A stretch of 63,534 nt of DNA, the filler included, from Rhabdomonas costata (Eukaryota), in the NCBI GenBank assembly GCA_019059605.1. It is 56 parts of 56 records of this genome, joined end to end, with 100 filler letters (N's around TTAATTAATTAA, not from the genome) between each part and the next. Parts side by side here need not be neighbours in the genome. Positions count along the whole stretch, not along the records: positions 5,687 to 6,723 come from JAHMHO010032134.1; 55 more parts are not named here. One strand, written 5' to 3'. The translations under genes were made by a program, and so were the position numbers. Shown here piece by piece: positions 2,864 to 53,942 of the stretch. The notes below the pieces were generated by a model that was not told the origin of the DNA, did not search any database, and saw only the letters and a list, made by a program, of their open reading frames with translations. Numbering within the stretch: position 1 is the first letter of the stretch; each line of letters begins with the position of its first letter.

Positions 2864-3557
2864 CTGAAAGCTCCCGTGGGGCTCGCTCCCCTCGTGCTCC
2901 GGGGGAACGGTTTTGCCTGATCGACCTTGCTGACATCCGCAGTCACAGCTGCTTTATCGACTCCTCAACCCACATGTGGCAGGGTGGGCTAAGGGCTTTT
3001 TTGCAACAAAATAAGGGAGGCGGAGGGTCAATCCCTTTTTTGTTGTTTCACCTGTCCCCTGTAAAACAAGATACGAATAACAGAAATTGCAGTGAGGGGA
3101 CTACTTGGTATGACTTTTTTCACTGGAAAAAAAAACAGTGGGGTGGATATTCCCAATTAACAACTGGAGCGGAGGCTTGGCGAACGACGCCTTGTTCTCG
3201 GAAAAACCGGGGCTTCCTCTGCTCCCGCTGGTTGGCGAACGACGCCTTGCCTTGCAAAAGGGGCGCAAAGCGGGCAGGGCGTAGGTCGTGACGGTTACAC
3301 AGTGGTTTTTTTNNNNNNNNNNNNNNNNNNNNNNNNNNNNNNNNNNNNNNNNNNNNTTAATTAATTAANNNNNNNNNNNNNNNNNNNNNNNNNNNNNNNN
3401 NNNNNNNNNNNNTTTTGTTTGTCTGAGAAAGGAGCCAACCCCATGGAGAACGGGGTGCATCATACATGACAGGAGCACCACCCGCTCAATAAACCCAAGT
3501 TGTTGGCTCCTTTCTCAGACAAGCAAGACGGCCGCTCTGTTAGCGCTGCAGGTACAC

Positions 3558-3644
3558 CTGTCCCTTATATGGAGTGATCACCGTGATCTGGGAGCGGTCC
3601 AGCCCACCCACGCGGAGCAGATAGGAGGCCAGCTCGAAGGTCAT
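3558..3644 (-). CDS. Exon of a UPF1-like SF1 helicase (AAA_12 domain; ZNFX1/senataxin-like)
   Basis: CAG|MTFELASYLLRVGGLDRSQITVITPYKGQ|GT; the ITPYxxQ motif is typical of UPF1-like helicases. Confidence 0.75.
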
Positions 3645-4724
3645 CTGCACCTCTGTTGGCAAGGCAGGAAAAAGGAAGGTGATAACGATGAAACCTAAGG
3701 TGGGTTTTCGCAAAAGGCTGCTGACGTCATCGATGTGGAACTTGGCATGTAAAGGATGGGGTAAGGCAGGTGCGTGGGGCGAGGATGGTCAACAAGAAAG
3801 TTCGGCTTCGAATTTTGGTCCTAAACAACAGTCAGCCCTATTCTTGGGCGATATGTCTTGAGAAGATGCGATTGGAGGTCGGCGAGGGACGGAACGGGCC
3901 CGAAATAAATGTCAAATACTTTTGAGCCAGTAATTGACGAGAGAGCTGAGAGTCGAGAGAAGTAGATAGCCACACAAATACAGGGTGCAAGTTTTGCAGA
4001 CCCACCGCAACCACCGCAACCACACAAAGCAGTGAAAACTACTACGGACCTGCGACATTCATCATACTTAGCCCGACATCGCTCTTGGACTCGGGGTGGT
4101 CGTGTTCCCAGAAGAAAATGCTTCGGGCCATCCCTGTGATCGTCTCCCCCGTGTCCAGCAGCTTGGGGCCACTGAATCAAGAACCGGCGAACTGAAACGA
4201 GAGTTGTCCCAACTACTCTTTCTGCACACCAGCCCCCACTGGAAAGAAGATTGATGATTTCCAGCTTCAAGGACTTGTCACCATTGGCAGGAGTCTAAGG
4301 CGTCCCTCTCCTCTCTCTTCCCCCCAGTGAAAGTTCCACGAACCCACTTGGCCATTGCCTTCTGAGCACAGGGTTTCTTACGTCGATTCACCGGGCATTC
4401 CATCTGGGTCGACGCTCTAATCTCAAATACGTTCACCAACCCCACCATCNNNNNNNNNNNNNNNNNNNNNNNNNNNNNNNNNNNNNNNNNNNNTTAATTA
4501 ATTAANNNNNNNNNNNNNNNNNNNNNNNNNNNNNNNNNNNNNNNNNNNNTGTGTGGTCCGGGGGGAGACTCCGTCCCCCCCCGCAACTTACCTACGGTTA
4601 GGGAGTGTTCTCCTGCTCTTTTACAGCCATGTTCCCTGCTATGTTGCATCCATGATGGCTACTTCCAGGGACTCTTGGTGTGTTTCGTGATCTTCCTTAT
4701 GGCCGGTCATTTGGGATTATGCCT

Positions 4725-4980
4725 TTTATATATCATATATCATATTGATGATGATATATATGATATATGATATCTATATTTCTTTTTGATATATATCATA
4801 TTATGATATTATCATATATATGATAATATGATATTAATGATATTATCATATATATAATATTATATAATAATAATATGTATTATCATATCGTATATATATG
4901 ATATCAAAAAAATATATCTATATCAAATCATATATATATTACATCTTACATTGTAATATTTAGATTACATTGTAGATTAA
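4725..4980. repeat. Extremely AT-rich low-complexity tract with imperfect fold-back symmetry
   Basis: TA/ATG/CAT-rich; ATATTTCTTTTTGATAT is mirrored by ATATCAAAAAAATAT. Confidence 0.8.
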
Positions 4981-4989
4981 AGAAGTATA

Positions 4990-5062
4990 GTAAGTTGGGA
5001 GCACCATCCCAGTTTTACGAAGCCTGCGGCTTCGGAAAACTAGGACGTTGCGCCCAACTTAC
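4990..5062. repeat. Imperfect palindrome (35-bp stem, 5 mismatches, 3-nt loop)
   Basis: GTAAGTTGGG...CGAAGCC-TGC-GGCTTCG...CCCAACTTAC. Confidence 0.85.
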
Positions 5063-5151
5063 GTTCACTTTCATTCGCCGCCATGCCGCCATTAGTCTAT
5101 CTGTTTTGAGAAAGAGCCGCTAAACTGACTGCTCTGTACAAGTTAAATATT

Positions 5152-5390
5152 ACCCAGCCCATCCATAATATCCAGCACATGATACCACCCAGTCCAGACA
5201 TAATACCCAGCACATGATACCACCCAGTCCATTCATAATATCTAGCACATAATACCACCCAACCCATCCATAATCTCTAGCGCATAATACCACCAGTCCA
5301 GACATAATACCAAGCGCATAATACCACCCAGTCCGTTCATAATATCCAGCGCACATCACTACCCAGTCCAGCCATAATCTATAGTGCATA
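5152..5390. repeat. Tandem repeat, ~35-bp unit, about 7 copies
   Basis: ACCCAGYCCAKMCATAATAYCYAGCRCATRATACC-like units head to tail. Confidence 0.9.
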
Positions 5391-5453
5391 CTAGGTTATT
5401 TTTGTATAATTTATTAAAAAAATTATATAATAATTATATAATTTTTATTCTGT

Positions 5454-5535
5454 TTTAATCTCTGTTTCTTCAAGCGGTGCTTTAATATCTGTTTCTTCAA
5501 GCGGTGCTTTAATATCTTTTTCTTCAAGCGGTGCT
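5454..5535. repeat. Tandem repeat, 27-bp unit, 3 copies
   Basis: TTTAATATCTGTTTCTTCAAGCGGTGC. Confidence 0.9.
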
Positions 5536-5686
5536 GTACATACACCATCATACATAATGCGCCGTTTATTATATTTAGCACAAACCNNNNNNNNNNNNNN
5601 NNNNNNNNNNNNNNNNNNNNNNNNNNNNNNTTAATTAATTAANNNNNNNNNNNNNNNNNNNNNNNNNNNNNNNNNNNNNNNNNNNN

Positions 5687-6723
5687 TGTTGGTGGTTTGG
5701 CCCGCGGCGCCAACCTCGGCACGGGTTCCTCATCGCGGCGGAGGAGCGGCTCCACAGGGCTGCTGCAGGGCTGCGGCAGCTGCGCGGGGCCAGGCGATGG
5801 CGGTGGTGGGGTGCATGTGCGAGCGGGTGCATCCTTGGTAGCTGTGCTGCCGTGGCCACACAGGAGCCGCAGCAGCACACTGACCTCGCTATTCTCCGCA
5901 AGCGAGTAGGCGGAAAGCATCTCGCCTGGGTGTAGCTGTTAGATGCCGAAGATAAGCCGCTGCTGTTCGGCGGGGATGCCCTTTCGGTTGTTGATCAGCT
6001 GCATCAGCTCGCGTACGGGCGTGGTCGGTGGAAGCCGCAATGCGATCGTCTTTCCCGTGAAGAGCTTTACGAAGAATTGAATACTCGCTGGTGTGGGTTC
6101 CACCGTGCAGAGGGCTGCAAATGGAAGACCATGGGGACTGTCGATTGCAGCATGCCGAGCAAGTTGGTAGGCTGCCCGGAGAACAATCGCGCAGGAAAGT
6201 GTGCTCTAGATAGAGCGAGACACCTCTTCACGGGTCAGTGGAGCGAACGAGGACGCCTGGCGCGATATTACCGCTGAAATAAAGTTCCTGGCGTCGCACC
6301 GGAGAGCGCAGAAGGTATCGCCAACAAAGTGAAGGTATCCCCATCCCGCCGATTGGCAGAGGTCGCGGGAAATGCGGACTTTCCGTAGCGCCGAGGAGTC
6401 CACCAGGAGTTGGTCTGGGGGCAGTTTATTCCAGGGGCAGACTGGTGTGACAATCGTGACGTCAATAGCCAGATGGCGGCCTTTGTAATTTCCCACAAGT
6501 ATGTACGCTGGTACCCGGTCTGTCACCCAGGCGGTGATTGCTCTGTCTTGACTGCAAAGCCAGCTTTGAGGAGGATCTGGACCAGGGCTTCCTTGAGAGC
6601 CGTGTGACTCCGTCCAATGGTTCCAGTTTTCTGGCAGCATACTGCGTGGATTCCACGAGCGTCTGCGGTTCGTCCACAGTCTGGACAACGGTACGGCTCC
6701 GCACGTAGCGGAATGCCAAGTAC
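5687..6723 (-). mobile_element. Decayed CRE-clade (RLE-type) non-LTR retrotransposon, C-terminal region: CCHC knuckle, restriction-like endonuclease, then an in-frame ubiquitin-like domain
   Basis: CPDCGRTADARGIHAVCC, RSH, frameshift near 6523, RVPAYILV (RPAD-like), LAIDVTIV, FVGDTF, SI*STLSCAIVLRAA; no introns. Confidence 0.8.
5855..6082 (-). pseudogene. Ubiquitin-like domain, 76 codons, TAA at the Lys48-equivalent codon
   Basis: IQFFVKLFTGKTIAL...GIPAEQQRLIFGI*QL...LLRLLCG; gap-free against ubiquitin, 32/76 identities by manual count. Confidence 0.9.
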
Positions 6724-8990: not shown

Positions 8991-9119
8991 ACCCAACNNN
9001 NNNNNNNNNNNNNNNNNNNNNNNNNNNNNNNNNNNNNNNNNTTAATTAATTAANNNNNNNNNNNNNNNNNNNNNNNNNNNNNNNNNNNNNNNNNNNNTTG
9101 TGTGTGGGTGGGAACGCAC

Positions 9120-10007
9120 CGATGAACTCCAGCCGAACTGAGAGCCAGCAGGATGCGCCTTGGCTGGTGAAGAAGGCCGTCTGGTTGGTGTCCAGCAGGG
9201 TCAGGTTTTTGGCCCTAAACTCCCACCACCCACGAAAGGGTGCGCCACTCGGGCACCAGAGGCAGGGAAGAAAGCAAAGCTCACATTGCACAAAGGGCTC
9301 AATTCAGACTAAACACAGCAAACGACGAGGCACACAAGCAAATGGCTTCGCGCAACGCTACTGATGGTGGGTTCAGTCAGTGGGTCATTGAGAAGATATA
9401 CTTCTCGACATATCCAGGATCGAGGAAATGTGCTGGAGACAGCCAGCATTTCTAAAAGCTATCCAGGATTCGTTCCACACCTATCCCCTACGCTCGCACA
9501 CTAGGCTTTATCGTGGCATCCGCTGAGAGGGTTCCAGACACACACAAAGGGTTGGTCTTGGCCCCCAGACAAGGGGATATGCATACCAACCCATTCACAC
9601 CTCCGGCTGGCGCCGTTCAAGCAGACCCTTGATAACAACTTGAAGGAAAGCCAACCTGGTGCGACGCACTTGCGCAAGACTGCCTTTTTGCGAAGACACA
9701 AAAACAACCACCTCAACAGGCTAATTTGCAAATAGCAACCTGCACACACACAGACATGCCCGCTCACACATGCACACCGGTAGCGGCCCTGGGCATTGAA
9801 GGCGCGGATGGTGGGAAGGCCGTGGAGGGTCTCCCCGAACAGCGCGTAGATCGGGCTGCGGCTGAGGCTGTCCAGGCGGCTGACCTCGCGGAAGGAGCGG
9901 ATGTAGTACCGCTGCGTCCGTACGTACACCACCGCGATGGGCACCAGGGCCAGCAAAGACAGCGGGGTCACCGCCACAATCGTCAGCATCACAGCAATGA
10001 TCCGGAC
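9120..10007 (-). CDS. ABCC/MRP transporter, second TMD; exons 9778-10007 and 9120-9214
   Basis: QRYYIRSFREVSRLDSLSRSPIYALFGETLHGLPTIRAF joins in phase to RAKNLTLLDTNQ...WLSVRLEFIG across a GT-AG intron. Confidence 0.92.
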
Positions 10008-11859
10008 CTATCCCCCATCCCGACACAGAGGCTAAGAAGGGGAAGTTCCACTTGAGTGGAAAGACGTTACTTGTCCAAAAGGACCACTCCACTTTGCCGC
10101 AGTTTTGTTACATAGAACAGAAGCAAACCAAAACNNNNNNNNNNNNNNNNNNNNNNNNNNNNNNNNNNNNNNNNNNNNTTAATTAATTAANNNNNNNNNN
10201 NNNNNNNNNNNNNNNNNNNNNNNNNNNNNNNNNNGGTTGTGGGGGCAAGAAGTTGAACTAAAGTCCAGCATTCCTATCCTAAATGACCGGAAACCAAAAC
10301 GAATGCTGGACTTTAGTTCAACTTCTTGCCCCCAAAAAACCTTACATTAAGAAACGTTGCTCAAGTTCTCCCATTCTTGGAATTCCCATAAGCTGTTCTT
10401 GCCCCTGTTTGCAAGTCAAAAGCGAGCCCAGTTGACTTGTGAATCGACGGTTTAGTATCAAGCACCTTGCGTCTAGGGCTTCAAACCGCACGTTCGTCAT
10501 TCATGTGTTGGACTCATAGGTTGCACAGTGAGAGCTGCACAAAAATGGAGCGCTGACTGAATTTATACGGTTGGTTGGCGGGAGTTTTAACGAACCATGG
10601 ACGCCTTGTGAAGTGGTGTTTTGTTTGGAGGCTGCCACTCGTGTGAGGGGAACGCACATTTCCCAGCTCGACCTCCGTGTCTACGCGGCCTTAGCGCTGA
10701 TACATGATTTCTTCATGGACGTCACTGGACGCACCTTATGGTGTGCAATTTTGGATTTTTCGAATTTCCAACTCAGTTTTCTGTTCCTGCATTGGGCGTT
10801 TGCACATGCATTTCCCTATCCCGTTAACCTGCTGGGCTACATACCTCAGTCCGACCTGTGATTACCTCCGTCACCATTCCCCGTCTGCTCTTTCCTCGTT
10901 TGCATGGGTTTCTTCAACAAATCTTCCTTGCATCCTCTCCTCTCTTCTTCGTAGTTACCCTTGGGAGCTAGTGTGGCACGAGTAACGCTTAGCTCACCAG
11001 TGCGCAAAGCCATCAATACGGATTCCGACCGTTTGAGCTGGTTCAGCAGTGCGGCTGCTTTTCCCTGTGAATTGGTGGTTTTCAAGGTGGTTCCGATTGG
11101 CGCTACTTTTGCTTCACCTGTGTAATGCCATCAACTCCCCCCCCCCAGCTTTTTTGTAGCTTCCTTTCCCTTGTGCACCTCAAATATCAAATGGGGATCG
11201 TGGTTAGGTTGTGCATGTTGTGCGCGCGCCTGCACTCACAGACGCGCGCACAACATGCACAACCCAACCAANNNNNNNNNNNNNNNNNNNNNNNNNNNNN
11301 NNNNNNNNNNNNNNNTTAATTAATTAANNNNNNNNNNNNNNNNNNNNNNNNNNNNNNNNNNNNNNNNNNNNGGGTTGTGGCCGCCAAAGTTGGTGGGGCT
11401 GACACAGCAAACAATCCAGCACTCCGGCTCACAGTCGCTGAACTTGACCCCACTACGAACACAGGTCGGTGGGGCACATTTACCGAGTCATCTTTATCTC
11501 CCGAAGTCAGAAACGCTGTGCTTCCAGAAAACGGGATATATCGGGAAAGAAACGGATAAAAAACAAGGGAGCAAAATCCGAAAACTTCCAGCCAGGCGCG
11601 GGGCAGATGGATTGGAAGAGGTGGGTGGGGTAAAAATCGAACCTGAACCTGACCTCTAAGGCTCTGAACAATACCTTGATTTTGAACCAAAGCAGTGAAA
11701 GTAGTTGGCCCCCCTCATTTTGGAACCACGGCTTGGTCTTCTTTCCCATCACCTCCCGCCCCATTCCCGTCGGCTTTCTCGTCTCAATAAAAACAGAAAT
11801 GGATGTAACCTATGGCCGTTGTATGGGTGAGGTTTATCTTTACCTTGGCCAATCTTCCA

Positions 11860-25765: not shown

Positions 25766-27312
25766 GAATACAAATTATACAATTAAAAATTATAAAAATT
25801 ATACACGCTCGAGAAAATGGAACACAAACTACCGCATGAAGCAATACTTAATAGCAACGCTCGTCCTAATTTTACCGGTTTTATCAGCAGCTCATTTGAC
25901 TCAAAATCCTCTTGGCACAGTTTTGGAGGCAAATGTGCAATTAGTTCTACTGATGCTAACAGTGTTCAACCTCCTGGTACAACGGTAAAACTGGCACAAA
26001 ATACCAAAACACCGCGAGCTCAATTTCAAAACTTAACAAACAACCNNNNNNNNNNNNNNNNNNNNNNNNNNNNNNNNNNNNNNNNNNNNTTAATTAATTA
26101 ANNNNNNNNNNNNNNNNNNNNNNNNNNNNNNNNNNNNNNNNNNNNAGGCAGGGTCCTTTCCCTCTATTACTCCGACCACACTGTAGGATTTGTATGAGGA
26201 GGCCTCGTCATCGTAACAAAAACCTGAGGCATACCTCGCCTTCCGCTACCATGCAGAAAGTAGCGGGAAGGCAATACATTAAAAAACAGATAAGGTTGAC
26301 AGCTAAGGAGTGGGCCAAGTGGCGGGAGTACAGAGTAGGAAATGGATGAGAAGAACATTAGGAGGTCCTTCGGAAACATCCCTCCGCTCTGTGGCGTAAG
26401 GGATAAGCTGACTAATACACTGCGAGCAAGTTCCTGGACTGAGAAAAGAAGGCGCTTGGGGAATGACCCTGACACATTTCCCGTTGAAGGGATTGTACTT
26501 CTTCACTTAAAACAACTTGAGCCCTTCCGCCGTGGCACACTCCTGCTCCCCCTCCTCGGACCACCTCTCACCGTAAACCTTCCCCGACACACATCCGACC
26601 CGACGGCCGGAACCCTTTTCAAACGAATCCCTCGCCTGCCCTGTCCATTGTGCCATGCCTGTTTTTCTTTTGCGCATAGAGAACAAACAGGCACCCTAGC
26701 AAATGTTTCGCATCTAACACGTCAAAGACTTCTCTTTGAATTTTGGGATGGTGAGTGGGTAGTGGGTGTAGGAGCGTAGGCCCGCGAGTGAGTGGGTCAG
26801 TGGGAGTGCAGACAACAACAGGGAATTGATGGAGGTGAGGTGAGTTGGATTAAAAATTTCAGGAAGGAGAACATGGCCCCACATCGCCTGTGGGGGCGTG
26901 ACAAGATCTCCATCACCATCTCACTCCAGTGCACGACACCCGGCATCGGAACCGGAACCGGAGCTGGAGCCCGTTCTTTGAAAATCAAAAGCAGGTTTTT
27001 AGGTATGTTACTTTCCTTCAGAGGGAAGATGGCCCCTCTCCTCAAAAGAAAGCCTTTTCTTTCCTCCCGAGCTGCTCTGTTATCCAGTACACAGCCCAAC
27101 TGAAGGTTTGCGTTGGAAGTGGGGGTTGGTGGGAGACGAAGATCGCAAAGTTCGGGGCTGCAAACCAAACCCCAAACACACCCACNNNNNNNNNNNNNNN
27201 NNNNNNNNNNNNNNNNNNNNNNNNNNNNNTTAATTAATTAANNNNNNNNNNNNNNNNNNNNNNNNNNNNNNNNNNNNNNNNNNNNGTGTTGGGTGTGTGT
27301 GGGTGGTGGTGT

Positions 27313-27498
27313 GAGGCGGTCGTGGAACACTCGGCTGCACTCGTGGGTCCACAGCCGCACCATGGTGCCGCGGTCCTGGCAGTTCTCCGGGGTGATCATG
27401 AGGATACCCTGTACCACCTTGCTAAGGTCGCGCAGGTTGAAGGTGTAGTGACTCTTCGACGGCGTGGGACGCATCTCGGCGAGAAAGGTCGAGTAAAC
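27313..27498 (-). CDS. Axonemal dynein heavy chain exon (lid after AAA3)
   Basis: RPTPSKSHYTFNLRDLSKVVQG...RLWTHECSRVFHDRL. Confidence 0.95.
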
Positions 27499-28737
27499 CT
27501 GCGGGTGGGGTACGAGAAGTGTTGGGGGAGCACGGCCTGCGTTAGAATTGAAGTCCATAAACGGGGGTGAGGATTTTGCATCGCGGTGGACCATTTTATT
27601 TGGCGAACTCTGGAATGTGGAGACTTGCGGTTGCCACAAACTTCTGTCGAAAAATGTCGCGGAGCCGATTCCACGCAAAAAAAAATTACAATGTGGTACA
27701 GTTCTGGCGATTTGGTACGCTAATGAGCCCACTTGGTGGCGTTTCTGGCACACACTAATGCCCTGACCAAGACATCTCCGATATTTGCCCAACAGGGACA
27801 AGTTTTGGTTTGAGGTTGAGGATAGTTAATCGCTTAAACTCTGACTGACTGAAGCAGGGTTCGGGTTTGGTACAGAGTTCACCATTTTGTGTTGTTCACA
27901 AGCTTGGGTTAGATTCAGGAGTTGGACCAGGTTTGGGGAAGAGCACCAATCTTGCGTCTAGCAGCGTTACTCGAATAACCGCATGAATGTAAAAATGTTG
28001 AGGCTGGAAAACTGTCCATGTCTTTCCATCACAAGTTCCCTTTTGCGAAAGACCACAGCGCAGCGTCACGGATCAAATGTGGTGCATACACACCCGCTGG
28101 AGAAGGGGGGCGGGGCGACGGATGAAGGGTTGCAATTCTCCACAGATCAAAGTTCCGAAGCTAATGCCCCCCCCCTTCAGAATTCCAGGAAAATACAATG
28201 GAAAAGCGTTTCTAATGAAGCTGACTGCCCCAGGGGGTCACACAGAGGTTGCCAAGCATTGTCAACACTCTGGTGTCAGGGTAGCCCAAACCACGTAAAC
28301 CAGGAGGTGGGTATGCCATCCNNNNNNNNNNNNNNNNNNNNNNNNNNNNNNNNNNNNNNNNNNNNTTAATTAATTAANNNNNNNNNNNNNNNNNNNNNNN
28401 NNNNNNNNNNNNNNNNNNNNNAAGCAATGGGAACACCGAAGGCATGGGAGCGCGAAGTATGATGGGGGACACAGGACGGACACACACACACACACACACA
28501 CACTGCATTGTTTCAGTCACACCGCACGTGGCACCTCGCCCTCATCTGTGCGCTCTTTGCCACACCGAACACATCAGTCGTGTGTGTGTGTGTGTGTGTG
28601 CATTACCAGCGGCACCGCTATGCCGCCTGCGGGGCTACGGTGCCAGGATAACTCAACTTCTCGAGGAGAACCCTAAGAGGATGTTACTTTTGGCTTTGCC
28701 CGTAGAACTGTCTTCGTCTCCTGTCCGGAAAAAAAAG

Positions 28738-29399
28738 GGTGTGGAGTTCCTCGCTCCCCCGCCCCGCACGGGCCACACTGCGGTGTGGTACCAGGACCGG
28801 ATGTACGTTTTCGGTGGTTACGACGCCAACGCGGTATTTTTTTTGTGTAAAAAAACGCATTTTCTGTATTTACGTATGTGCGTGTGTTTGCGTGTGTGCT
28901 CTGGCCCTCTGCATAGAAACAGCCTTTTGAGCTTTGCCATGCGAGGGCACAACCACAGGCCTTCGAAATGCCTTTGGGGGGTCTCTTGCGGTGACGTCAG
29001 TTGTGAGGCTGATACAAATGAGCTTTTTGCCAGCCTGTCGCACCATGTAGCATTTTTACACAAGCCTCAAGAAATGAGTTTTTGGGGCCATTTGGGATTG
29101 GGTAAGGACCTTTTATGGACTCCCTTCTGCGACGAGAATCCTGGTTCGTTGGCGCATCCTTAGGGCATCTGCGAACTGCTAGTGGTGTCAGGGTCTGGCC
29201 TCAATCTTCGACAGATGGGGTGGCTCTGTGTGGAAGCTTCACATGGAAAAACCGCTGTCCCCACTTTCTCAGGGCGACACCGGTGTGTTATTCAACGACA
29301 CCTTTGAGTTTGACTCCCATCGCGGGGTCTGGCGCAAGGTGCCCGCGCAACGCGTGGGCGGGTCGGGTCCCCTCACCCCGCGCGCCCCGCGGCACAGCG
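28738..29399 (+). CDS. Kelch-repeat protein; exons 28738-28833 and 29273-29399
   Basis: PPPRTGHTAVWYQDRMYVFGGY|...LFNDTFEFD...W. Confidence 0.88.
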
Positions 29400-44581: not shown

Positions 44582-46959
44582 GTGCTGCTCAATCATCCAT
44601 ACCCTCCCGCCCGTGCTTCCACCTGTGCAGTGATCTTTGTCGTTGTGGAGGTAAAAATGGCAGTGCTCGAAGGCAATCACCTGAGTGCGCTGGAACGGGA
44701 AAATCTAACCAAAAAAAGCTGAACGGAGTCAGACCTCACATTCCCAACTCTCAGCAACCCCCGCAGGGGTGGAGCATGTGGTCAGGGAGTGTTAGCTCTG
44801 CAGGGGTAGTCTGGGGCTCATGGGGAAGAAGAGGGTCCTCGTCAACGTTTCTCCGTTTTTTCGTTTCTCCGTATTGCAATCCACATTAGTCGCCATTCTT
44901 CGTTTACCTTTTTTGATATAGGTGTGAATTGAGCTGTATTTTCGCTTACACGCTCGATATGCGGTGGCGTTTCACTCCCCTCCTGCCTCAACAGGGAAAG
45001 TGAAGCAGCTCGCTCCAAGTGCGAGGGAGAGCGGTGATTCCATCATCCATGTCGGTCCCCCGAAAAATCTCGGATGACGGCTATCTGGCATGCAAATGCT
45101 GCACCCACCGCTATTTTATGGAGCTTAGAGCACACGCAAAATCAGTAGTACGTTATGTTGTGAGTATCGGGCGGCCTGCCACCCACTCGCTGAGGGCTTG
45201 AATTTGACGTCACGGCCGTGCTTCAATGAGTCAACGTCTTTGGGAGAACCGCTGACGTTGTTGTGCTTGCTGGGAGAGTGTATCACTACTTCCCTCGCAC
45301 CGTGAAGCTTCCAACGCTCAACTCATTAAATTTAAGGCTCAAGGCAGCCGAACCAACCCCCNNNNNNNNNNNNNNNNNNNNNNNNNNNNNNNNNNNNNNN
45401 NNNNNTTAATTAATTAANNNNNNNNNNNNNNNNNNNNNNNNNNNNNNNNNNNNNNNNNNNNGTGGTTTGTGCTGGGCGTTTTGGTTCTTGTCATCGTGGC
45501 AGCGAGTGATAGTCAAGGGGCCATTAGGGCAGCGTCGCCTCAGTAGTACAGTGCAGTACACAGGGACGCTTGGATGCTTCTCCCCTGGGTGGTCGCACCT
45601 AGGGCGAGTTTCTTTGTGTTTTCTTGATGCTCCAAGAGCACGCAGGTTGCCTTGCATCTCTGCCAGCCGGAAGAGGACCAGAGAACTTGTCAGAGGAGAT
45701 GGGAGGGCAGATGCGTCTGAATTCCACCAGGGCTCCTGGTGCCTCTGGGATATGCAGCAATGCAACTGCGCAGCACATCCTCTAGGCCTCACCCCGTTTT
45801 CCGCCCTCCGCCTGCTTGGACCTCTTCTGTCTTTGCTTATTGCTTTCCTGTGCGCTGTAAATACCCCTTTGGAGACCCACCTGCAGCTGCAGGAGTAGTG
45901 TGTGTGTGTGTGTGAATGTGTCCTCATTGCACCTGCCTCGTCCCTCCGCGCACGCATACAAACAAATCAGCTGTTGGTGCGTTGCGGCGCTGCGGATGTG
46001 TATCGACTAGCATGAATTCCTTGGTCCCAAAAGAAGTCGTGAAAAGCATAAAACTCTCAGTTCTGGGGCCTCAGCTCATGGATCCCCACAGGCTGGATTC
46101 GAATTTTTTTTTTTCGAATTTTCACCATTCGAGAATAACTTAACCAACATAATCAAAGTTGAGGCCTAAATATCTCATATGTCCAGGCCAACTCGGTGGC
46201 ACAGAAAATGATGGGATGTGCTTGTTGACCACCTAGCTGATGTTTTGATTCCCACTTCCGATCCTCCGGTCCGGCTTCAGCTCCCCTACCATTAAGGGGG
46301 TGCCAGGGTGACTCTAAGGATTGGGGTTGTCAGACCAGATTACGAGACTAGAGTAGATGGGTGCTGTCAGACTACCCCTCCCCGTTCCAGTCACCAAAAC
46401 GAGGAATTCGTGTTCGTTTCTTCTTCGTCTGATGCACTGTGGTCTTTCCTTCACTCTGTCGTGTTTGCTTGGCATTTGTGTTCCGTCTCTTGCTGTGNNN
46501 NNNNNNNNNNNNNNNNNNNNNNNNNNNNNNNNNNNNNNNNNTTAATTAATTAANNNNNNNNNNNNNNNNNNNNNNNNNNNNNNNNNNNNNNNNNNNNTTT
46601 GTTGGGGCTTACGCCCAGAGCTACTACACACCCAACATACCGTAGGTTCAACGTGGGGCGATCACATCTACTACTAAGATACATATGCGTTTGGTTCACC
46701 GTATGACCTAAGCGCACCCTACCGTATTGGGCAGTGGCCTCATCCGTGGTTTACCAGCGTGCGTTTCTAGGCGTCCCTGATCGACACGCTTAGTCCAGCG
46801 CGATCACCTCAACTTCGCCTGCGGAACCTCTTCTACGCAGGCAATGGGGCCTGAGCTGTTGTGTGTGATCTATGTCTTCGGATGGATGATATGGCGAAAA
46901 GTGCCCGCCTTTCTTGGATGATAAAGAGGGATGATAAAGAAAGATGCGGCATGATTGAC

Positions 46960-51695: not shown

Positions 51696-52400
51696 GTGTG
51701 CATCCCTGTGAGGAGTTCACTTAACCCCGCCAAATGGGGAATTTGCAATGGCCCCGTGAACACAGTGGCACCCAAACCCTCAGGCAGTGACAAGGCACAG
51801 CGGGGTACAAGGTCCGAAGGGGTCAAGAGGCCCGACGAACTCGTGTTCCATCGAAAATGGTGAGCTATGGGAGGCGAAGGGACCTCAACTCGGCGCCACA
51901 TGTAAGGATGTAAGGGAGGGGCAAGGACCGGGCCAGGGCAGTTATGGCGCTGTGGTCTATGGGCAAAAGAAAGGGCCCAATGGAAGTTAGGAAGGGGGGG
52001 GGGCAAACGGACACCAGTGGTCACTTTCTGAAAACTTTTCTGAAGTTAACTGAGCGGTTACACAATACCCTGACAGCACTTGAAATGACTTTTTTGTTTA
52101 AGCGGGTTACGTATACGTTGCCAGTACTCTCTATGGCTGGGATATGGCCGGACGAGCAGGGCGTATCCCAACCAACCNNNNNNNNNNNNNNNNNNNNNNN
52201 NNNNNNNNNNNNNNNNNNNNNTTAATTAATTAANNNNNNNNNNNNNNNNNNNNNNNNNNNNNNNNNNNNNNNNNNNNCCGCACACTGTACATATGTGTTT
52301 CAACTTATGCCTCTTGCTAATGATTGTGGCGGTTATGAGGTTGAGTTAGGTGGATGTAAAGTTAGGGTATGCGGGCGAGGACATGGGCGTGGGTGGGCAG

Positions 52401-53108
52401 GTCATGAGATCTACAGCTTTGGGCAGGGCCAGTTTGGGCGGCTGGGCCACGGCGACCAGGCGGACCACCTCACCCCCGCGATCATCCGGGGCCTGAAGGG
52501 CCGCTCCGTGGCCGGGGTGGCCGCCGGCCTTTTGCACACTGTCGTGTGGACTGCTGGTATTGGCTCGGATCACCCTTACTGACCATGACCCCCTGTAAGG
52601 AAAGCGGCGCCACAAAAAAATATGGCCCGGGGCGAACTTTTGGCTTTAGGCGTGCGTGTTTGAGCATTTTCCATGCATTGTCAGGCTCCAAACTAAAATA
52701 CTGACTCTCGAAGAGATCCGGGGGTTCATAATAAAGATGTGCACAAAAAACTTCTCTTGCTGGCAAAGGGCGAAGCCGAAGCAGGCATGTGGTCTTTCTA
52801 CACGTAACGCTTGTGCCCCGTGACGATTATTTCAGGGTAGCATTCGGGTTCGTCTGTTGCCGTTGCCGCGACCGTAGTGTTGACCCCTCTCCCAGCACAG
52901 CAGACTCAAGGTCCTTCTCCACCGATTGCACCGCGCGTCTGTCCTGCCTCAGGAGGGGAACTGTACAGCTGCGGTTGTGGCCATGGTGGGCAACTCGGCC
53001 ACGGGGACTTCCGCAACCGCAACGTACCCACCCTTGTCCGTGCCCTTCGAGGGAGACCAGTGATCGGGGTGGCATGCGGGCACTACACCACCCTCGTGTG
53101 GACCCGAG
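52401..53108 (+). CDS. RCC1-repeat protein; exons 52401-52556 and 52953-53108
   Basis: YSFGQGQFGRLGHG...VAAGLLHT; YSCGCGHGGQLGHG...VACGHYTT. Confidence 0.92.
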
Positions 53109-53942
53109 GTTTTCTTCTTTGGCTTTGGGACAATTGCCGTGTTTTTTGTTCGCCTTAGTGCTTTTTCGTGCAATGAAAAGACGCACGTAAAGGAGAGTGG
53201 TTCAAAAGAAAAAAGCCCTTCCCTGTGACGCGCCAGTACGGAAAGTCCTGTTGCACTGTTTTCCGACATTGGATGTCGGTTCACCAGGACCCTCTCCATG
53301 CAATGTTGTGCTGCACNNNNNNNNNNNNNNNNNNNNNNNNNNNNNNNNNNNNNNNNNNNNTTAATTAATTAANNNNNNNNNNNNNNNNNNNNNNNNNNNN
53401 NNNNNNNNNNNNNNNNGTGTGGGTGTGGTTATTTAGTGTCAGTGTGTGCTGATTTGTTTTCTGGTGATTATGACAATCAAAAAGAAGTCAGTTGTTTTTG
53501 CGCGTCACAATATATTGGGTGGATGCAGAACAAGAGTTGGTGACTCTAATGGGGTTTTCTAAATGGGTTTTTATGCTGGTTACCGCTACCTCTGAGTATA
53601 TCGTAGCTTGCCTTCGTTTCGCAGTTTTTTGTCCTTTTCAAGCTAATTTTTTCTGCAGATGGAGTGTTGGTAGCACACCTGCCCGAGCGCACACATCAAA
53701 ATAATACTTACAAACTCATTCTTTGGAGCCTGTTCCTCAAACTGACTGTGAATGCCTGCATCAAAAAGCATACGCGGAAGCAACTTAAACAAAGACAAAT
53801 GAAAAAAGCTGCTACCGCACTACATCCGCAGCACATCTCATGGGGTTCCGTTGCGTGCTGAAGCCCACACTTTAATGGGTTGTGGCCACAAGAAAAATTG
53901 GCATACCTTCACTTGTACGGCACAGAGAAAATGGTGAGGAAG

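Follow-up and report, generated by a model that had tools for sequence, protein, structure and literature searches.

Does the genome of Rhabdomonas costata hold a retroelement endonuclease that continues into a ubiquitin-like domain, or do two dead coding pieces with separate histories stand side by side on the same DNA? The question is raised by one contig within the stretch that we analyzed, here called the window, whose 63,534 bases do not represent one locus: it consists of 56 contigs of 1031–1040 bp, arranged in roughly descending size, and the joints between them are artificial N44-TTAATTAATTAA-N44 spacers, so that any feature spanning a joint is an artefact. The initial annotation had described this contig as a CRE-like retrotransposon endonuclease fused in frame to a C-terminal ubiquitin-like domain (Ubl), and had proposed that a retroelement family captured ubiquitin. 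The junction between the nuclease-like part and the Ubl was examined in a single copy (n = 1). The contig carrying it has the highest GC content among the 56 (0.596), and searches with tblastx and blastn found no relatives of it among the other 55. It begins 12 codons upstream of a zinc knuckle and carries no reverse transcriptase (RT). The coordinates of its features are collected in Table 1. The reading that we favor, at a probability of about one half, is that the remnant of a retroelement-type (RLE) open reading frame (ORF) adjoins a separate, host-derived Ubl pseudogene or exon, and that both are dead.

Table 1. Features of the contig with the nuclease-like part and the Ubl, listed in reading direction; positions are those of the window.
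Feature	Position	Strand	Description
Whole contig with nuclease-like part and Ubl	5687..6723	-	1037 bp; artificial spacers on both sides, without flanks
CCHC zinc knuckle, C-x2-C-x9-H-x2/3-C	6634..6687	-	Frame 0; only generic zinc-finger matches with phmmer against PDB
R-S-H	6604..6612	-	Frame 0; candidate for the RH motif of RLE helix 1, here with a Ser inserted
Glu of VKTEQ	6541..6543	-	Frame 0; after a helix-like stretch
TGA closing frame 0 (6526-6723)	6523..6525	-	Chain resumes in frame 2; frameshift within about 6521-6540
P-A-Y, within RVPAYILV	6503..6511	-	Frame 2; candidate beta2 of a PD-(D/E)XK core
A-I-D-V-T-I-V	6449..6469	-	Frame 2; candidate beta3 of a PD-(D/E)XK core; Asp at 6461-6463
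Lys of A-L-R-K (A-L-R-K-V-R-I-S)	6380..6382	-	Candidate catalytic Lys, 27 residues past the Asp
In-frame TAG	6206..6208	-	57 codons past the candidate Lys; lesion or natural terminator of the nuclease ORF
Stop-free spacer	6083..6205	-	41 codons, GC3 0.46; holds a possible splice acceptor TCTTCCATTTGCAG at 6115-6128
Ubl	5855..6082	-	76 codons; first codon ATT, TAA at 5939-5941, end LLCG
Pro-rich open frame	5687..5854	-	56 codons, runs off the contig end; GC 0.71, GC3 0.70

Judged by its sequence, the downstream half is beyond doubt a genuine ubiquitin-family domain. The Pfam profile PF00240 matches it with 50.3 bits (cut-off 25.4; E 2.1e-13) over profile positions 2–71 of 72, with the internal TAA read as X, and against the canonical ubiquitin unit 32 of 76 residues are identical in an ungapped alignment, which upholds the 76-codon, gap-free homologue proposed at the outset. 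A search of PDB likewise aligns it to ubiquitin without gaps and places the X opposite Lys48, where the stop had first been reported. Its end, L-L-C-G followed by a Pro-rich stretch, also reads as annotated. The position of the domain is another matter: its description as C-terminal is unsupported, given the 56 further open codons up to the contig end, and neither the suggested DUB-cleavable site nor a C-terminal tag is visible, the Ubl having no RGG end and the frame continuing past it.

The domain may also be compared with host Ubl-domain and ubiquitin-fusion genes, in which the Ubl opens the coding segment and further sequence comes after. Here, too, the Ubl starts its segment and is followed by Pro-rich sequence, and ubiquitin-type residues are kept, for example GIP..QQRLIF. 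It differs from such genes in ending with LLCG instead of the C-terminal Gly-Gly (LRGG), in starting, where ubiquitin has Met1, with an ATT that differs from ATG by a single base, so that the segment as it stands has no ATG of its own, and in the TAA at codon 48.

The upstream half was approached through the published hallmarks of RLE domains, which in an excerpt of PMC4838377 comprise a CCHC knuckle, an RH motif in helix 1, a Glu, a PD, a second acidic residue (D/E) about 13 residues on, a Lys in helix 2 (K..KY) and RG.W; R2Bm uses Asp996, Asp1009 and Lys1026 for catalysis, and its RLE is the C-terminal domain (PMC10499050, excerpted text). The R-S-H, the RVPAYILV...AIDVTIV block and the downstream Lys named in the initial annotation were all located on the minus strand. 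The knuckle is present as well, but with a spacing of x9 where x8 had been given, and the break placed near 6523 is real: frame 0 halts at a TGA and the motif chain is picked up in frame 2.

Set against the CCHC and RLE module of the R2, CRE, NeSL and Utopia type, the likeness lies in the order of the motifs, in the distance to the second acidic residue (the Asp of A-I-D-V-T-I-V, 14 residues past the Tyr, against 13 in R2Bm, as far as the excerpted sources go) and in the position at the end of an ORF. The differences concern the catalytic positions themselves. The Tyr of P-A-Y occupies the place of the first catalytic Asp, and no Asp stands there; the K..KY motif is absent, and a single Lys without a KY stands 27 residues after the Asp, not 17 as in the excerpted description of R2Bm; and no R-G-x-W lies downstream of the candidate core, although an A-G-W stands before candidate strand 4. 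Further differences are the lack of detectable sequence similarity to solved R2 proteins, the absence of an RT, which together with an RLE, zinc fingers and poly-A makes up the CRE architecture in the excerpted text of PMC12278014, and a frame that can be read on into the Ubl. Members of the CRE clade (CRE1/CRE2/SLACS/CZAR) are recognized by their RT phylogeny and by insertion in spliced-leader RNA genes; this contig holds neither an RT nor a flank. Six-frame translation of the 56 contigs gives 115,844 residues, which contain one CCHC-R.H chain and one match to the pattern P-A-[D/Y]...D-[VI]-[TS]-[VI], both in this contig, and CCHC-type patterns such as the one found here occur twice in total; these counts are to be read as post hoc, as the patterns were written with the sequence already known.

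Homology searches returned nothing that would identify this half. Pfam assigned no family to it. With phmmer against all PDB chains (E up to 10), no R2 chain was found for either piece, and the core piece matched nothing. Word-indexed protein searches yielded 121 candidates for residues 1–145, 46 for the 66-aa CCHC piece and 5 for the 104-aa core, none of which scored, and metagenome scans gave 364 and 542 pattern matches, with 0 relatives by tblastn. In a scan of viral contigs, two from IMG/VR (L001 and L002; 4001–4081 in each) share a 23-residue match of 56% identity with core-piece residues 77–99; it is probably due to chance, since no more than 5 candidates underlie its E of 5e-4. The claim of an RLE core by homology thus has no detectable homologue or family behind it in Pfam, PDB, the protein database or the metagenome searches.

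A HMMER search used the nuclease core read through into the Ubl as its query and is therefore uninformative on the nuclease part: all 150 listed matches are multi-ubiquitin proteins, with the best stretch within query residues 119–232, and among the matches listed no protein scored above about 144 bits with a match to both halves. Four pieces from outside the Ubl, compared by phmmer with these 150 listed multi-ubiquitin proteins, showed no resemblance (best E 0.13). AlphaFold2, run without an alignment on the 278-aa read-through, gave a mean pLDDT of 35.7. In the Atlas, the 104-aa core lies at 0.96 beside unnamed eukaryotic protein clusters without Pfam families, a value to be read against shuffled proteins, which reach 0.95 about once in 100. 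The motif chain may also resemble the unannotated, element-associated ORF ends common in eukaryotes, a likeness that amounts to a lead. We regard the upstream part as probably a degenerate RLE-like remnant.

No Pfam family was found in the 5 open frames on the opposite strand and in the other frames (0/5), Rfam had no match, and the only internal repeat is one imperfect 22-nt inverted pair. This pair, 6043-6064 and 6224-6245, is 77% complementary with a perfect core of 10 nt and brackets the spacer between nuclease-like part and Ubl; such a pair is at about chance level for 1 kb.

What joins the halves is a common strand and a common frame. The 278 codons of frame 2 hold 2 stops, where shuffled sequences lead one to expect 7.8 (P 0.012), and most of this openness belongs to the nuclease-like and Ubl domains themselves. 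The 63-codon spacer at 6083-6271 contains one stop in two of its frames and two in the third, with a GC3 of 0.52; no frame stands out as coding, and the spacer has no coding signature. It includes the in-frame TAG, whose position agrees with the initial annotation. This codon had been taken for a mutated Trp codon, but it may instead be the original terminator of the nuclease ORF, since it falls 57 codons past the candidate Lys and the RLE is C-terminal in known elements. For orientation, R2Bm has a total length of about 1114 residues.

For an unrelated downstream segment, the chance of matching in strand and frame and of following a 41-codon spacer free of stops is about 1/2 x 1/3 x 0.30 = 0.05, a probability that is small, yet not negligible for a finding that was picked for its in-frame look. 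Reassignment of TAA and TAG was also considered and is unlikely: clear host exons, a small sample, have no internal stops, and the frameshift persists regardless of the code.

A single GC3 change point fitted along the reading path falls best at 6076, after the first two codons of the Ubl, with 0.55 before it and 0.74 after it (permutation P 0.0135). The GC3 of the Ubl (0.75) exceeds those of the CCHC piece (0.50; p 0.003) and the 63-codon spacer (p 0.007), and does not differ from that of the Pro-rich tail (p 0.56), which groups with the Ubl. The nuclease core alone, at 0.63, is not significantly different from the Ubl (p 0.12).

Two Pfam-confirmed host exons, from an ABC-transporter and a dynein, have GC3 values of 0.91 and 0.86, so that high GC3 marks host coding sequence here, and a scan in GC3 windows, which picks out host exons, picks out exactly 6076-5894 here. 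Because the GC3 of the Ubl is itself lower than that of the two host exons (p 0.012), it can be called host-like in a relative sense only. The upstream part, at 0.50–0.63, lies far under the host exons (0.89; p below 1e-5).

These observations are most readily accommodated by two pieces with separate histories. The first would be what is left of an ORF at its 3' side, combining a CCHC knuckle with a degenerate PD-(D/E)XK-like core such as stands C-terminally in RLE-class non-LTR retroelements; it is frameshifted, carries Tyr for the first catalytic Asp, and most likely terminates at the TAG. The second, which begins 123 nt downstream, would be a diverged Ubl that starts at the Met1 position, is interrupted at codon 48 and extends into the Pro-rich frame past the contig end; we infer that it came from a host gene. 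Their common strand and frame would then be coincidence. The composition step at the start of the Ubl, the spacer without a coding signature and a TAG standing about where RLE ORFs normally stop all argue for this reading, as do the first codon of the Ubl, one base from ATG, and the 56 open codons past it, which fit an N-terminal Ubl followed by a low-complexity region and not a C-terminal tag. Neither piece is functional now: the nuclease remnant is unable to cut DNA, and the Ubl frame is interrupted. The verdict of the initial annotation that this copy is dead is supported.

Several observations weigh against two separate pieces. The agreement in strand and frame and the open spacer, for which two pieces need a coincidence at odds of about 0.05, follow directly if the fusion is real. 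The lesions are similarly light in both halves (344 codons hold one frameshift and one or two stops), which is what the single death of one unit would leave, and the composition contrast is blunted at both ends, by a nuclease core close to the Ubl and by a Ubl below the host exons. Neither an element 3' UTR nor poly(A) was seen between the TAG and the Ubl, and the Ubl has no ATG. Furthermore, Pfam found RT, integrase or transposase families in 0 of the 150 longest open frames (out of 178 with at least 95 aa) of the 56 contigs; retroelement coding fragments are thus rare in the sample, which makes a chance adjacency less likely a priori.

An alternative origin of the same adjacency would be an event at a single locus, for example template switching, read-through at the 3' end, or an insertion that landed beside a Ubl gene or pseudogene. 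LINE-type chimeric retrocopies and 3' transduction join an element and host-gene-derived sequence at one locus, and their products are dead on arrival. On the present 1-kb piece, neither a poly(A) nor a target-site duplication nor the 3' UTR of an element is visible in support of such a mechanism. On balance, what the contig itself shows speaks rather against a fusion of nuclease and Ubl that is old and established.

Next in order stands the proposal closest to the initial annotation, namely a family of RLE-class non-LTR retroelements with an in-frame Ubl after the endonuclease, serving as a processing or targeting module, of which this contig would hold one decayed copy. We regard it as rather unlikely. 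It accounts for the common strand and frame, for the single stop that separates the nuclease block from the Ubl, for the near-open 278-codon frame, and for decay that is comparable in the two halves. The Ubl itself, with 32 of 76 residues identical, is far from ubiquitin, yet it has one stop and no indel, which implies that, until its death, selection acted on it as a Ubl in its own right. Against such a family stand the single copy, without relatives in database searches, the GC3 step at the Ubl start, the non-coding-like spacer and the TAG at the usual end of RLE ORFs, and also a Ubl without an RGG end whose frame runs on. The last point can be turned around in a variant of the proposal that we hold to be just as doubtful, in which an internal Ubl is followed by further polypeptide as a module in the style of ubiquitin fusions, the copy died recently and the TAG is a lesion. 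Such a module could, for example, release or stabilize a downstream product, or engage the proteasome or shuttle machinery.

Accessory domains of the ubiquitin system do have a precedent in this class. According to the excerpted text of PMC4640811, NeSL and Utopia-1_TSP combine an RLE-class element with an acquired domain of the ubiquitin/SUMO system; there the extra domain is a cysteine protease resembling Ulp1, located at the N-terminus and present in several families, whereas here it would be a ubiquitin fold after the endonuclease, seen once. On the parts of the literature compared, this N-terminal Ulp1 protease appears to be the nearest precedent for the fusion. The abstract openings and excerpted texts covered, as distinct from supplementary element tables, describe no element of the RLE class with a ubiquitin fold. 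The word "ubiquitin" has 0 occurrences in the Utopia/NeSL paper (PMC4640811), supplementary tables apart, and likewise 0, again apart from supplementary tables, in the mobilome paper on 57 trypanosomatid genomes (PMC12278014).

The features of the sequence are real, but as a biological entity the fusion of nuclease and Ubl is unproven. If true, it would give RLE-class elements an accessory-domain architecture that is new, and would be a natural experiment in the use of the host ubiquitin system by a mobile element. The present data describe ordinary genomic debris, an element-type remnant adjoining a dead Ubl coding segment, and they carry a general lesson: in-frame continuity across a stop-containing spacer, on a contig of 1 kb, is weak evidence of fusion.

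Two further explanations are improbable, each to a similar degree. In the first, an assembly or amplification chimera would have joined two unrelated fragments somewhere within 6083-6271. The extreme fragmentation of the assembly, the composition step at 6076 and the spacer without a coding signature would all suit a joint of this kind, but no repeat or low-complexity tract that might favor misassembly lies there, apart from the imperfect inverted pair, and a chimera requires the coincidence of strand and frame as much as the two separate pieces do.

In the second, the contig would belong to a host gene, possibly a domesticated, element-derived one, encoding an inactive nuclease-like domain and a Ubl, and either recently pseudogenized or affected by sequencing errors. 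At key catalytic positions it has lost the expected residues (Tyr stands in for Asp, and K..KY is missing) in spite of few stops, which suggests divergence under selection that preserved the ORF, and the reading frame does extend past the Ubl. However, this ORF contains a frameshift and two stops, whereas clear host exons have no internal stops; 1 kb of the contig is free of introns, whereas host exons here are about 70 codons long with GT-AG introns; and the GC3 of the upstream part is far below that of host exons. The most improbable explanation, that only a Ubl pseudogene or exon is real and the upstream part is no nuclease or retroelement remnant, would fit the uniformly negative homology tests, the low pLDDT and the post hoc patterns, but it has to face an ordered chain of CCHC, R-x-H, E, P-A-x, D 14 residues on and K that reproduces the RLE order of the excerpted publications, is unique among the six-frame residues of the sample, and includes a core placed at 0.96 in the Atlas.

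The remaining contigs offer several minor observations. The ABC-transporter coding sequence mentioned above consists of two transmembrane exons at 9098-10134 on the minus strand (PF00664, E 1e-9; GC3 0.91) with about 530 bp of GT-AG intron between them, from which we take the genome to be intron-rich and its exons to be GC3-rich islands. The dynein exon, at 27286-27825 on the minus strand, encodes a heavy-chain AAA-lid (PF22597, E 1.7e-13; GC3 0.86). Further host exon fragments occur in several contigs, including 52278-53316, 14782-15817 and 3413-4449, and RCC1, Pkinase, Kelch, HATPase_c, ORC5_C and DUF229 are among the Pfam families matched by the 150 open frames that were scanned. Two AT-rich contigs, 1139-2175 (GC 0.39) and 4550-5586 (GC 0.36), stand apart from the rest (about 0.51) and may be of different origin, for example from an organelle or a contaminant; the latter contains a short tandem peptide-like repeat (KAPLEE.DI) near 5445-5560. 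Finally, (CA/TG)n microsatellites are frequent in the sample, for example at 28423-29160, 45463-45966 and 18745-19227, where they give rise to long open frames that are spurious and translate as THTHTH or CVCVCV.
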